A stretch of 7,176 nt of DNA from the NCBI RefSeq assembly GCF_965641715.1, contig NZ_OZ282458.1. One strand, written 5' to 3'. Position numbers and translations under genes: made by a program. The notes under the pieces were generated by a model. It was given only the letters and a program-made list of their open reading frames with translations. It was not told the origin of the DNA and did no database searches. Positions 2,040 through 6,470 of the stretch are shown here, one piece after another (the stretch's first letter is position 1; the number at the start of each line of letters is the position of its first letter). The stretch comes from Escherichia coli (GTDB taxonomy: Bacteria; Pseudomonadota; Gammaproteobacteria; Enterobacterales; Enterobacteriaceae).

Positions 2040-2280
2040 CCCGCTCCGGTCCCCGTCTTCTTCGCTTCCGAAAGCATGAAAAAAATCCGTTTCAGCAGTC
2101 TCTGGCTGGCAATTCCTGCGTGATTCACATGGCTGCATAGCTATGCATGTGGTTAAAATTTACCGGGTGCGATCGCGGCAGTTTTTCGGGTGGTTTGTTG
2201 CCATTTTTACCTGTCTGCTGCCGTGATCGCACCGAACGCGTTTCTGCGGTGCGGGCAACGGATGTTATGGTAAATACAAT
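2040..2280. promoter_or_regulatory. cer: cer-like plasmid multimer-resolution site (accessory sequences plus XerC/XerD core)
   Basis: Segment cgcggcagtttttcgggtggtttgttgccatttttacctgtctgctgccgtgatcgc...gaacgcgttt...gcggtgcg...ttatggtaaat closely matches recalled ColE1 cer. Perfect palindrome tgcatagctatgca at 2134-2147 lies about 110 bp upstream of the core, where ArgR binds in cer. Confidence 0.75.
2248..2275. promoter_or_regulatory. XerC/XerD recombination core: XerC arm GGTGCGGGCAA, 6-bp central region CGGATG, XerD arm TTATGGTAAAT
   Basis: XerD arm is identical to the ColE1 cer/dif-type consensus TTATGGTAAAT. XerC arm differs from cer (GGTGCGTACAA) at two positions. Central region is 6 bp rather than the 8 bp of ColE1 cer. 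Confidence 0.7.
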
Positions 2281-2332
2281 ATGCAGCCAGTCTTAGAGAC
2301 GAAAAGTCCGCCCAGAAGACTGACTTTTCAGA

Positions 2333-2539
2333 TCAACCTTCAGCATCTAACTTGTCTATCGCTTTTTTATTGCGCCGATAGGTAGCCATTAGTTCACCAT
2401 CGCCTGATTGTAAGTCACGACCTGCTTGCTCAGCATAGGTATCGTTTACAGTCTTAGCGCCTTTTTTATAGGCCTTTTTAACATCATCAAATCCGGCTTG
2501 GATGACTTCTTTCGGCTTTTCTTGAGGTAATTTAGCCAT
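2333..2539 (-). CDS. Hypothetical 68-aa protein, second gene of a two-gene operon; function unknown
   Basis: ORF MAKLPQEKPKEVIQAGFDDVKKAYKKGAKTVNDTYAEQAGRDLQSGDGELMATYRRNKKAIDKLDAEG. ATG at 2539 preceded by GAGGA with 8-nt spacing. Start overlaps the upstream gene's stop (ATGGCTAA, 8-bp overlap), implying translational coupling. AT-rich like the neighbouring R-M genes. Confidence 0.6.
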   Translation of the reverse strand: MAKLPQEKPKEVIQAGFDDVKKAYKKGAKTVNDTYAEQAGRDLQSGDGELMATYRRNKKAIDKLDAEG

Positions 2540-2915
2540 GCTGTGAATCCTCTATAAGGTTGATTATTTTTCCAACAGATAAGACGGCATCTTCTGTGTC
2601 GCTGATTTTATGATTTATCCAACCGTCCTCTATCTTTAATTTGTTCACTACTCCTAATGTAAAAACAACCTTTTTTTCAGGAAAGAAAATTGCAAAGGTT
2701 CTACTTTTCTCTTTCCAATCAGAGGGCGGCGTCGAACGGAACGCTACATTCCTCGATTTAAGTATCGCTTTGATTTTACTAATTAATTCTTTTTTTTGTT
2801 TATTGCTGAGATTTTTGACGAACCCTTTGCTGAGATTGTCTGTGTAATCATCAAAAGAAATATCAACTGGTTTGTTTTTTTGTTTTTTATCAGATAGATG
2901 AACAATGTTTGACAC
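2532..2915 (-). CDS. Hypothetical 127-aa lysine-rich protein, first gene of the two-gene operon; function unknown
   Basis: ORF ...SNIVHLSDKKQKNKPVDISFDDYTDNLSKGFVKNLSNKQKKELISKIKAILKSRNVAFRSTPPSDWKEKSRTFAIFFPEKKVVFTLGVVNKLKIEDGWINHKISDTEDAVLSVGKIINLIEDSQHG. Initiation codon at 2915 is GTG, preceded by AGGA with 6-nt spacing. No motif I recognise. Confidence 0.6.
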   Translation of the reverse strand: MSNIVHLSDKKQKNKPVDISFDDYTDNLSKGFVKNLSNKQKKELISKIKAILKSRNVAFRSTPPSDWKEKSRTFAIFFPEKKVVFTLGVVNKLKIEDGWINHKISDTEDAVLSVGKIINLIEDSQHG

Positions 2916-3054
2916 TGGATATCCTGCTTTTTGATGAATGAATACTCAGAAGAGTAGCGGAACTGTCTTGTTAGTCACAGAGGTAGAGTATCAATTCTAC
3001 GATAGATGGGTTCGAAGATCCGGCTGAGACCGTTCAGTACGCGGTCGAGATGTT

Positions 3055-3059
3055 ATGTT
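3055..3059. repeat. 5-bp target-site duplication ATGTT, left copy
   Basis: ATGTT immediately outside the GGGG terminus of the left inverted repeat; identical pentamer at 3269-3273. Confidence 0.8.
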
Positions 3060-3097
3060 GGGGTCTGAAGTCCAATGGAACGAAAACGTACGTTAGT
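3060..3097 (+). repeat. Left terminal inverted repeat, Tn3 family
   Basis: GGGGTCTGAAGTCCAATGGAACGAAAACGTACGTTAGT matches the Tn3 right-end IR recalled from pBR322/pUC (GGGGTCTGACGCTCAGTGGAACGAAAACTCACGTTAAG) at about 30 of 38 positions, and is closer to the gamma-delta/Tn1000-type end as I recall it. Confidence 0.8.
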
Positions 3098-3230
3098 GAA
3101 GTAACTGTATGATATATCAAGACATAATAGACATAGAAAAACGCCATCAAAACGGTGTCTTTTTAATCGAAAATTGGCACTTAACGGACGGCATTGTCTA
3201 CTAATCGATTTTTAAGACGATAATTTTCCT

Positions 3231-3268
3231 CTTACCGTACATTTTCGTACGGTTGGCCCTCAAACCCC
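3231..3268 (-). repeat. Right terminal inverted repeat, Tn3 family
   Basis: Reverse complement of 3231-3268 is GGGGTTTGAGGGCCAACCGTACGAAAATGTACGGTAAG, matching the left IR at 28 of 38 positions including the GGGG terminus and the ACGAAAA core. Confidence 0.8.
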
Positions 3269-3273
3269 ATGTT
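3269..3273. repeat. 5-bp target-site duplication ATGTT, right copy
   Basis: ATGTT immediately outside the right IR terminus; identical to 3055-3059. Confidence 0.8.
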
Positions 3274-3519
3274 CAATGTAATGACCGTCGAAATTGCCTT
3301 TACGGGCATGAAGCAACCAGGAGCAATCATTGGCAAAGGTAACTAGAGTTCAATGCATGGTAATCATTTTTGAGCTTGTGATGCATAGAGTTGGTTGCTG
3401 TTCCATTGCGTCTCAAACTCCGTCAAGATGCTCGCCGTAAAAGCGAGCATGTCTAGTATGCCTGTTCCGCTACTGATTTTTGATGGGCGAATTCAGGGCT
3501 GGCTAGCCACCAAGAAAAA

Positions 3520-4581
3520 TTACTTTATTTCATCAAACAGGTGAGATGCAGTATAATAAACGCTTTGATCAAAGCGTCTCTCTGGGCTTAATTTATTTTG
3601 CCCGCCATTTAAAATTATTTCTTTTAATACTGATGGTGGAAGGATGGGTTTTGTTCTTCTTGGGTGATCCATATAAGCTTTTGTTATTTTTCCGTTTAGC
3701 GAGAACTCTTTATCACTTTGATATCCAAAGTTCATCTCAGTATAAATTCTATTGATGTTTGTCTTGTTTTTGCTCGCAATTTCATACACCATTCTGGCGA
3801 GTCTGGCTGATGATCTCATTAGTCTGCTGGCAGATGAATTGTTATATGAGGATCTATCAATAAAGGTTCGACACAAAGCAAAATCACTCCAGATGAATAT
3901 GTCAAAGGCATTTTGATCTAATATTGGGCTCTTGCCTTTTGTTTTCCATAATGGTTGCATTAAAAAAGGTTTCTGGTAATCAAGAAAATTTTCTTGGAAA
4001 GTGTTTAGGCAATTTAATATATTTTCTTTCTTTGAAAGAACTTCAGTTTCATTCCCCCAGTGCTGTATGCTTTCGCATGTGGATTCAAATATTTTTCTTA
4101 TTTCATGGAATTTATCGCTGCAAGAGTGCATTATGCCAAGGGCACAATAAGAAGTGCTTGCAGGTCTTATTACAATCTCTGAACTCCATTCGCTCTCGTT
4201 TTCTTTATATGTCGTGCTATCTGGGAGTACGGTTAATTTTATTTCTAGTGCTTTTAAAAAACTATTGTTTCCTTTTATAACTAGATCTATTCCTTTTATG
4301 TCATCATAAGCATACTGTTGGTATGGTTCATATTTTTTCTCAAATTGAAATTCAAGATCACTATTTTTTAATGTTGTGTTAAAAACGAAGTCAAAAGATA
4401 CTTCTTTGGCATGCACTTTTAAATCCTTATCTAAATAAAGATAAATCGGATTCATTTTGTTGTCTCTCATATAACATGCTAGAGAGGTGGGAAAAGAACT
4501 GTTAAATTGGTTCTTTCCCCACAGATCGCTCTCTTTCCTGTTGGTGTTTTTTAAACCATAAAGAGATTCTATTTTGCTCAC
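3520..4581 (-). CDS. Putative Type II restriction endonuclease, PD-(D/E)xK-like
   Basis: 353-aa ORF divergent from the C5-methyltransferase gene. GTG start at 4581 preceded by AGGAG with 6-nt spacing. Translation contains D99 (GIDLVIK) then 13 residues to E113-I-K115 (ALEIKL), the spacing expected for a PD-(D/E)xK catalytic core. AT-rich. No match recalled to a named enzyme. Confidence is about 0.85 that it is a real gene, about 0.55 for the function. Confidence 0.6.
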   Translation of the reverse strand: MSKIESLYGLKNTNRKESDLWGKNQFNSSFPTSLACYMRDNKMNPIYLYLDKDLKVHAKEVSFDFVFNTTLKNSDLEFQFEKKYEPYQQYAYDDIKGIDLVIKGNNSFLKALEIKLTVLPDSTTYKENESEWSSEIVIRPASTSYCALGIMHSCSDKFHEIRKIFESTCESIQHWGNETEVLSKKENILNCLNTFQENFLDYQKPFLMQPLWKTKGKSPILDQNAFDIFIWSDFALCRTFIDRSSYNNSSASRLMRSSARLARMVYEIASKNKTNINRIYTEMNFGYQSDKEFSLNGKITKAYMDHPRRTKPILPPSVLKEIILNGGQNKLSPERRFDQSVYYTASHLFDEIK

Positions 4582-4668
4582 TTTTTGCTCCTGACGTCAA
4601 TTTATTGACGTCTATGGTGTGTTTCTATATCATGATGTGGAGTGATATGATAATGAGTTTTTTATGTT
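4582..4668. promoter_or_regulatory. Divergent R/M promoter-operator region with tandem TTGACGTCAA palindromes
   Basis: cTGACGTCAAtttaTTGACGTCta at 4591-4614 gives two copies of a palindromic decamer 4 bp apart. The second copy supplies a -35 (TTGACG, 4605-4610) for the plus-strand M promoter; 17-bp spacer; -10 TATCAT at 4628-4633. The R-gene SD lies directly beside the first copy. Confidence 0.5.
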
Positions 4669-5826
4669 ATGAGAATAATTGATCTTTTTAGTGGGTGTGG
4701 GGGGTTATCCCTAGGCTTTTTGAAGGGGGGGTTTGATGTTGTAGGTGCTTATGATTTCTGGGATCCTGCTATTGAATGTTACAGAGATAATTTTAGCCAT
4801 CCGATAAAAAAACTAGATTTGAGCAATGTTGATGATGTGGTGAGGGAGCTTAAAGATATAGACTTCGATATGATTATTGGAGGGCCTCCTTGCCAAGACT
4901 TCAGTCATGCAGGTTTAAGAATTGAAGGTGCTAGAGCTAACTTAACTCGCTCATTTTCAGAAATTATAAAAAGAATAAAGCCAAAGTGGTTTGTGATGGA
5001 AAATGTAGATCGGGCATTAAGAAGTGGTGCCTATTTAGAAGCTCGAGGAATCTTTAAAGAATCAGGGTATGGGTTAACAGAAATTGTTTTGGATGCCAGT
5101 AAGTGTGGTGTTCCGCAAAAAAGAAAAAGATTATTTGTAATTGGAAAGCTTGACGTGAGGGATGGTTTTATCCTTAACGAAGTGATGTGCGGGATATCGA
5201 AAGATAGTATGACAGTTAGAAATTATCTTGGTGATTCATTGGGGATTGAGTATTATTACAGACATCCGAGAAATTATAACAGAAGGGCTATTTTCTCTAT
5301 TGATGAACCTGCGCCAACAGTAAGAGGGGTTAATAGACCGATACCTGATGGATATTTAGGGCATGCAGGCGATCCTGTCAGTATTTCTGAGAATGTAAGG
5401 CCATTAACAACCTTTGAAAGAGCAAGATTGCAAACATTTCCTGAAGACTTTAAATTTAAAGGTGCAAAAACAAATTTGGAGCAAATGATAGGTAATGCTG
5501 TTCCGGTTGAGTTAGCAAAATATGTTGCGGTGACAATCATGGAGTATGAAAAAAAACAAGTAAAAGGTATTTATGATAAAGAAGGCTTTAGGGCGTGGTT
5601 GCTGAATGAAAAGAAACTAACAAAAAGAACCTCTAGCGATATTATATCTAGATGTTGCAGAGGTGTTTCATTTTTTGATTCAGAGGGGGTGGATTTTTAT
5701 AACTGTGAAATAGATGAAATTATTATGAAACTGGAAAGGCTTGAATCGTTTGTCAGGCTTGGGGTTAGCCTGAAGTCTCAGTTAAGAAGGGCTTTTAAAT
5801 TATATTACGAATATTGTCGAAGGTAA
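4669..5826 (+). CDS. DNA (cytosine-5)-methyltransferase with a C-terminal extension of about 95 aa
   Basis: All canonical C5-MTase motifs in order: motif I FSGCGG (aa 7-12), motif IV GGPPCQDFS (catalytic Cys75), motif VI ENV (aa 111-113), motif VIII QKRKR (aa 150-154), short target-recognition region, motif IX RPLTTFERARLQTFPEDF, motif X GNAVPVELAKYVA. About 95 further residues follow motif X. Confidence 0.92.
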   Translation: MRIIDLFSGCGGLSLGFLKGGFDVVGAYDFWDPAIECYRDNFSHPIKKLDLSNVDDVVRELKDIDFDMIIGGPPCQDFSHAGLRIEGARANLTRSFSEIIKRIKPKWFVMENVDRALRSGAYLEARGIFKESGYGLTEIVLDASKCGVPQKRKRLFVIGKLDVRDGFILNEVMCGISKDSMTVRNYLGDSLGIEYYYRHPRNYNRRAIFSIDEPAPTVRGVNRPIPDGYLGHAGDPVSISENVRPLTTFERARLQTFPEDFKFKGAKTNLEQMIGNAVPVELAKYVAVTIMEYEKKQVKGIYDKEGFRAWLLNEKKLTKRTSSDIISRCCRGVSFFDSEGVDFYNCEIDEIIMKLERLESFVRLGVSLKSQLRRAFKLYYEYCRR

Positions 5827-5886
5827 TAAATACGAATTTATGTCTCTCAGGGGAGGGGGAGGGGATAAAAAGATCAAAGGATCCTC

Positions 5887-5922: not shown

Positions 5923-6470
5923 GTAAACAAAAAAACCACCGCTACCAACGGTGGTTTGTTTGCCGGAATCTAGAGCTACCAACTCTTTCTTCCGAAGGTA
6001 ACTGGCTTGGTGGAGCACAGATACCAAATACTGTCCTTCTAGTGTAGCCGCAGTTAGGCCACCACTTCAAGAACTCTTAATATCTCAATCCACCTTGTCC
6101 AGTTACCAGTGGCTGCTGCCAGTGGCGCTTTGTCGTGTCTTACCGGGTTGGACTCAAGACGATAGTTACCGGATAAGGCGCAGCGGTCGGGCTGAACGGG
6201 GGGTTCGTGCACACAGCCCAGCTTGGAGCGAACGACCTACACCGAACTGAGATACCAACAGCGTGAGCTATGAGAAAGCGCCACGCTTCCCGAAGGGAGA
6301 AAGGCGGACAGGTATCCGGTAAGCGGCAGGGTCGGAACAGGAGAGCGCACGAGGGAGCTTCCAGGGGGAAACGCCTGGTATCTTTAAGTCCTGTCGGGTT
6401 TCGCCACCTCTGACTTGAGCGTCGATTTTTGTGATGCTCGTCAGGGGGGCGGAGCCTATGGAAAAACGCC
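5923..6470 (+). ncRNA. RNAII replication primer precursor of the ColE1-type replicon (3' end approximate)
   Basis: Long near-identity to the pMB1/pUC ori sequence (GTAAACAAAAAAACCACCGCTACC...GGGGAAACGCCTGGTATCTTTA...GGAGCCTATGGAAAAACGCCAGC) with clustered substitutions in the 5' stem-loops. Confidence 0.8.
5925..6034 (-). ncRNA. RNAI antisense copy-number control RNA (about 108 nt)
   Basis: Reverse complement begins ACAGTATTTGGTATCTGTGCTCCACCAAGCCAGTTACC... and ends at the GCGGTGGTTTTTTTGTTTAC terminator, as in pMB1 RNAI. Promoter on the minus strand: -35 TTGAAG and -10 TACACT within 6035-6070. Confidence 0.8.

Follow-up and report, generated by a model that had tools for sequence, protein, structure and literature searches.

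Positions 3060-3268 of the window, the whole stretch of 7,176 bp of Escherichia coli DNA that was analysed, very probably represent a simple insertion of a TIME of the IS101 type, which is 209 bp long, non-autonomous and derived from a Tn1000-like transposon. The window itself constitutes an entire mobilisable plasmid of the ColE1 type (about 7.2 kb), which other small E. coli plasmids match end to end at 98.6-98.7% identity. The 209-bp element closely resembles IS101, of which it is a variant and which has long been known, so that it is no novelty. Of a transposon it appears to keep nothing but the parts that act in cis, i.e., the repeats on which a transposase would act and a three-subsite res that would serve a resolvase. 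Its parts are listed below, with the res subsites placed by a gapless register against the res of Tn1000.

3055-3059, no strand: left copy of the target-site duplication, ATGTT, read directly (one ATGTT fewer in two sister plasmids)
3060-3097, + strand: left terminal inverted repeat (IRL), 38 bp, GGGGTCTGAAGTCCAATGGAACGAAAACGTACGTTAGT
3106-3133, + strand: homologue of res subsite I, 28 bp, TGTATGATATATCAAGACATAATAGACA
3134-3155, + strand: spacer between subsites I and II, 22 bp, as long as in Tn1000 res
3156-3189, + strand: homologue of res subsite II, 34 bp, TGTCTTTTTAATCGAAAATTGGCACTTAACGGAC
3190-3194: spacer between subsites II and III, 5 bp, variable in four of its five columns among 10 distinct element variants
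3195-3219, + strand: homologue of res subsite III, 25 bp, TGTCTACTAATCGATTTTTAAGACG
3231-3268, - strand: right terminal inverted repeat (IRR), 38 bp, GGGGTTTGAGGGCCAACCGTACGAAAATGTACGGTAAG as read on the - strand
3269-3273, no strand: right copy of the target-site duplication, ATGTT, read directly and compared with the same two plasmids

Both terminal repeats start with GGGG, are of the Tn3-family type (about 38 bp, with GGGG tips and an inner end like ACG..TAAG) and are identical to each other at 28 of 38 positions; the coordinates at which the original prediction had placed them all hold, and an independent repeat search returned arms of 37 nt at 3059-3095 and 3233-3269 (78% complementary). 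From left to right, IRL is followed after 8 bp by site I, after a further 22 bp by site II, after 5 bp by site III and after 11 bp by IRR. Its interior had been described beforehand as about 133 bp of AT-rich, non-coding DNA, which is right as to length (133 bp), base composition (~35% G+C) and coding capacity (no ORF of at least 40 aa overlaps the element, the longest having 38 aa and spanning its left border), but the interior is not featureless, as it appears to be a res homologue. No transposase was found in the element or elsewhere on the plasmid, no resolvase was found in the window, and the sister plasmids of the same size have no annotated transposase. At 209 bp, the element also lies within the size range of TIMEs (50-500 bp, without a transposase gene).

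The 5-bp duplication could be verified by comparison with the sister plasmids NZ_AP025757.1 (6965 bp) and pEC34B (NC_019078.1, 6952 bp), in both of which exactly the 209 bp and one of the ATGTT copies are missing, the sequence across the empty site being ...gagatgttatgttcaatgtaatg... ATGTT is thus a real target-site duplication and not a coincidence. The junction, gtcgagatgttatgttcaatgtaatgaccg in both plasmids (positions 3369-3398 of NZ_AP025757.1), is the empty site that had been predicted from the window alone. Filled and empty plasmids are 99.7-100% identical in the flanks (0 mismatches in 783 bp of left flank against pEC34B), so that the insertion is the sole structural difference in the surrounding cargo. 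As precise excision is not known for Tn3-family elements, the empty-site plasmids most likely represent the ancestral state.

In a blastn search the element matched positions 2024-2232 of pSC101 (NC_002056.1) over 209 bp, and a global alignment with this copy of IS101 gave 193 identical positions out of 209 (92.3%) without a single gap. The two share length, repeat architecture and an internal res-like block, and both are non-coding; the 16 substitutions between them include two in each repeat, five in site I, where the left half-site reads TGTATGATA in the window element and TGTCTGATA in pSC101, and four in the spacer between sites II and III. The window copy has a target-site duplication, whereas the pSC101 copy has none. 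IS101 of pSC101 (alias TIME-IS101, described in 1980 by Fischhoff, Vovis and Zinder) is presented in PMC4133298 and PMC13367494, with reference to Fischhoff et al. 1980 and Ishizaki and Ohtsubo 1985, as a 209-bp TIME that has no transposase, forms cointegrates and contains a functional res site; its mobilisation in trans by the transposase of Tn1000 (gamma-delta) is reported there with reference to Ishizaki and Ohtsubo 1985. A survey from 2026 (PMC13367494) used a cut-off of at least 95% identity to the prototype for IS101, and would thus not have counted the window variant, at 92.3%. By the alignment the window element is a clear homologue of IS101; by this cut-off it is a divergent variant rather than an isoform.

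The same class comprises TIME1-4 of Pseudomonas, IMU, MITESen1 and TIME244/MITEEc2; its members are shorter than 500 bp, carry Tn3-family repeats, generate 5-bp duplications, are mobilised in trans, reside mostly on plasmids, and can form composite TIME-COMPs (PMC4133298, PMC13367494). IMU and TIME244 go back to the Tn21 subgroup, and the same two papers report no overall sequence similarity between IS101 and the other TIMEs. With a single copy of the element, the window does not contain a TIME-COMP; no resistance gene is involved.

For comparison with an autonomous transposon of the Tn3 subgroup, Tn1000 was taken from plasmid F (positions 4191-10171). It is 5981 bp long and encodes TnpA, TnpR and cargo, whereas the window element encodes nothing; the 5-bp AT-rich target duplication is common to both. 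Aligned to the 35-bp inverted repeat of Tn1000, IRL is identical at 32 and IRR at 30 of 35 positions, in agreement with the earlier proposal of Tn3-family ends, and the repeats of IS101 in pSC101 show equal mismatch counts. IRL is presumed to be a binding site for a Tn1000-type transposase. The interior was examined by sliding the 114-bp res of Tn1000 without gaps along the element, with 2000 shuffles as control. A single best register was obtained at 3106-3219, with 59 of 114 positions identical (~52%; shuffles: mean 45.1, sd 2.0, maximum 55), and in it the spacing is the same as in Tn1000 res, where sites I, II and III measure 28, 34 and 25 bp and are separated by 22 bp (I-II) and 5 bp (II-III). 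A plain local alignment between the interior and the tnpR-tnpA intergenic region of Tn1000 yielded a 20-bp match only (score 28 vs. a shuffle mean of 17), and the homology is therefore clear only by the gapless, full-length register test.

The gamma-delta resolvase half-site has the consensus TGTCYNNTA. In the register found here, half-sites of the TGTC type stand at the ends of the subsites (TGTATGATA...TAATAGACA in site I, TGTCTTTTT...TAACGGAC(G) in site II, and TGTCTACTA...TTAAGACG in site III), those of subsite I being TGTATGATA and, reverse-complemented, TGTCTATTA. The best local match to site II of Tn1000 (AAAAATCGA-TTAGTAGACA vs. AAAAATCGATTTAATAGACA) is located within the element's region of subsite III. 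Among 10 distinct element variants the repeats and subsites are conserved, subsite III being the most conserved internal block, and the variation is concentrated in the spacer between sites II and III. Judging by register and conservation, the interior is a three-subsite res homologue and not anonymous AT-rich filler, with which the SSEARCH match reported between IS101 and the res of Tn3 (PMC13367494) agrees.

Relatives of the element are widespread. In PLSDB, 586 plasmid records match it, 374 of them at ≥ 80% coverage and most of them from Escherichia and Klebsiella; among 5426 complete E. coli genomes there are matches in 353 (183 at ≥ 80% coverage), and 394 of the 396 E. coli placements are on plasmids. 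The window-type subtype occurs mainly in E. coli, including many ETEC plasmids, the pSC101 prototype subtype (~92%) in Citrobacter, Klebsiella, Aeromonas, Edwardsiella and Providencia (it dominates the sampled matches from Citrobacter, Aeromonas, Edwardsiella and Providencia), and a further Klebsiella subtype is ~205 bp long with ~85% identity. In a spread sample of E. coli matches, about 16 were of the window type (≥ 95%) vs. about two of the prototype type (~92%). In the public records the region of the element is blank, called 'hypothetical protein' or overlapped by 'Tn3 family transposase' pseudogenes, and none of the records examined annotates it as IS101 or as a TIME. Many large plasmids of E. 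coli, and one chromosome, contain with 98.5% identity a 66-bp fragment (element positions 144-209, window 3203-3268) that comprises part of site III and IRR; it looks like a truncated remnant of this element family that has spread widely.

Sixteen further copies were sampled, which represent about 12 distinct flanking contexts; copies with 100% identity are found at unrelated loci. Together with the lack of a transposase on the plasmid, these many unrelated loci support the view, put forward in the original prediction, of a non-autonomous TIME mobilised in trans. Only one of the other ~12 contexts keeps a 5-bp duplication (AATTA, the same context in L010 and L018), so that, counting the window, the duplication is intact in two of about 13 distinct contexts. 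As most sampled copies are without it, simple transposition is not the sole route by which they reached their present positions, and the window copy is one of a minority of clean simple insertions. Three ETEC plasmids (L006, L013 and L023) carry an identical copy immediately next to a 3' fragment of a Tn1000-like tnpA (the last ~440 bp), whose end is formed by an inverted repeat that agrees with the one of Tn1000 over the 35 bp compared; the loci concerned are ~1501-2152 in L006 and L013 and ~601-1252 in L023. The element is thus physically associated with Tn1000-type elements in ETEC plasmids. The right flank is common to the three copies and the left flank of L006 differs from that of L013 and L023, which indicates recombination or rearrangement at the element. 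The scarcity of duplications fits recombination at the element as well, be it res-mediated, homologous, or by intramolecular transposition.

The mechanism that we propose for the window insertion draws on the experimentally studied IS101 prototype and on Tn3-family biology. The layout of the element is that of a remnant which would have lost tnpA on one side of res, and tnpR and the cargo on the other. A Tn1000-type TnpA, supplied by another element in the same cell, would have bound the repeats of a donor copy that resided on a different replicon, and replicative 'paste-and-copy' transposition into the AT-rich ATGTT would have produced a cointegrate with two copies. This cointegrate would then have been resolved either by RecA or by a TnpR acting on the internal res, leaving a single copy between the duplicated ATGTT. 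The identity of both enzymes and the cointegrate stage are inferred, with a transposase of the Tn1000 type as the one proposed. The internal res of the window variant may be active, but the variant differs from the tested prototype at 16 of 209 positions, four of them in the repeats and one in the left half-site of site I.

A different parent is conceivable but rather unlikely, namely another transposon of the Tn3 subgroup with closer repeats and res, for which Tn1000 would merely be a cross-reacting helper. IRL departs from the Tn1000 repeat at three and IRR at five of 35 positions, the two arms disagree at 10 of 38, and the res is only 52% identical to that of Tn1000; the res of the prototype, moreover, works poorly with the resolvases of Tn3 and Tn1000 (PMC4133298). 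Taken together, the low res identity and the poor function of the prototype suggest that a transposon closer than Tn1000 may be the true parent or partner. On the other hand, mobilisation by Tn1000 is reported for the prototype, whose repeats have equally many mismatches (PMC4133298, PMC13367494), identical copies adjoin Tn1000-type remnants, and no closer full-length relative was present among the megablast matches. Two candidate partners were rejected: a resolvase encoded ~270 bp from the copy in p120899_146 is not a cognate Tn1000-type TnpR (29% identity over 98 aa), and a 3783-bp transposon in a sister plasmid, described below, has unrelated repeats (GGGGTTCCGTGGGCATTTCTGCGATAACAC...), lies in mbeA and has an ATTAC duplication of its own.

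The genes around the insertion site, as annotated in the sister plasmids unless stated otherwise, are the following; the same annotation includes the mobilisation genes MbeA/B/C/D and Rop.

2333-2539, - strand: small hypothetical ORF, 68 aa
2532-2915, - strand: small hypothetical ORF, 127 aa
3520-4581, - strand: HindVP-family restriction endonuclease
4669-5826, + strand: DNA cytosine methyltransferase
5927-6032: RNAI of the ColE1 replicon (Rfam match)

RNAI was the sole Rfam match in the whole window, with none inside the 209-bp element. The two small ORFs overlap, lie downstream of the endonuclease gene and are kept in all sister plasmids; neither matched a family in NCBIfam or Pfam searches. 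Relative to ColE1-type plasmids with other cargo (an EcoRI restriction-modification plasmid and pETEC_5), the segment from ~2277 to 5867 is variable: homology to plasmids carrying EcoRI restriction-modification or DUF3800 gene cargo breaks at ~2276/2277 and 5867/5868, and these breakpoints bound a ~3.6-kb module composed of the small ORFs and the genes for endonuclease and methyltransferase. The element lies inside this cargo, where 604 bp separate the endonuclease stop (3520) from the start of the 127-aa ORF (2915), and its insertion disrupts no ORF.

Further repeats were noticed in the recipient region. A possible relic of a Tn3-family terminal repeat, GGAGTTTGAGACGCAATGGAACAGCAACCAACTCTA, is located at 3386-3421 (- strand) in the cargo, ~120 bp from the insertion, and is identical to the inverted repeat of Tn1000 at 25 of 36 positions (maximum of 200 shuffles: 23); as it is also found in the empty-site plasmids, it is older than the IS101-type insertion. 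The intergenic region is bracketed by an inverted repeat (2953-2977 and 3450-3474) with an 11-bp perfect core, AGTAGCGGAAC, next to which lies a direct repeat (2924-2943 and 3473-3492); both may be due to chance. Another sister plasmid, NZ_CP148354.1 (10,981 bp), has the same IS101-type insertion and, at 5978-9760, a minimal Tn3-family transposon of 3783 bp whose tnpR and tnpA are oriented alike and whose repeats begin with GGGGTTCCGTGGG; it is inserted in mbeA with the duplication ATTAC (equivalent window site: 699-703). Tn3-family elements have thus inserted into this plasmid lineage on at least two occasions.

The res region of Tn3 and gamma-delta contains the promoters of tnpA and tnpR. 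This, and the position of the element 251 bp downstream of the endonuclease stop and 144 bp upstream of the ORF start at 2915, all on the - strand, could suggest that the insertion is functionally important and insulates or drives the small two-ORF operon by relic promoters or by a hairpin in read-through RNA, which is predicted to fold strongly across the element (-69 kcal/mol, z = -5.5), as is usual for MITEs. We consider such a role improbable. A scan of positions 2850-3600 on both strands gave no promoter-like (sigma-70) site and a single weak terminator-like hairpin (3141-3158, within the spacer between sites I and II) on the + strand, antisense to both genes, so that the promoter or terminator donation that had been suggested is without support. 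Empty-site plasmids, otherwise the same, are at least as common as filled ones, and the insertion is thus dispensable. An influence of the element on the expression of its neighbours is possible but unsupported.

Decay in place, by which a full-length Tn1000-like transposon would have been inserted at ATGTT and later reduced by internal deletions, is effectively refuted. The order IRL-res-IRR is what two internal deletions would leave, and a sister plasmid did receive a Tn3-family transposon; the latter, however, lies in mbeA and has unrelated repeats, and none of the sister plasmids has a longer element at the ATGTT site. The 209-bp sequence is 100% identical at many unrelated loci and IS101 of pSC101 is colinear, of equal length and 92% identical, from which it follows that the miniature form long predates the insertion in the window. 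A chance inverted repeat flanked by chance pentamers, for which only the general caveat speaks that short repeats may arise by chance, is refuted by the empty sites, by the hundreds of homologous copies and by the homology to IS101 and to the inverted repeats of Tn1000.

Read as an insertion of an IS101-type TIME, the 209-bp stretch is best labelled in annotations as an IS101-family TIME with its repeats and res. It reveals no new mechanism and belongs to a kind of mobile DNA that is already well understood, yet it provides a clean, datable case of trans-mobilised transposition into ColE1-type cargo with matched filled and empty sites. Modest additions to what is known are this filled/empty pair, the explicit register of the res, the predominance of the 92% variant in the sampled E. 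coli plasmids, and the scarcity of intact duplications among the copies. The element puts a resolvase target and a homology target on a small mobilisable plasmid and could mediate cointegration with larger plasmids that bear it. As a tentative extension, which we hold to be possible but doubtful, the window-type variant may act in nature mainly as a portable res or homology site that rearranges and fuses plasmids and not as a simple transposon, a notion based on the duplications kept in only two of ~13 contexts, on identical copies that share one flank only, and on a variant that seems commoner than the prototype in the sampled E. coli plasmids and would be missed with a 95% cut-off. If so, a small restriction-modification plasmid would gain a cointegrate route with the large ETEC virulence plasmids that carry the element.
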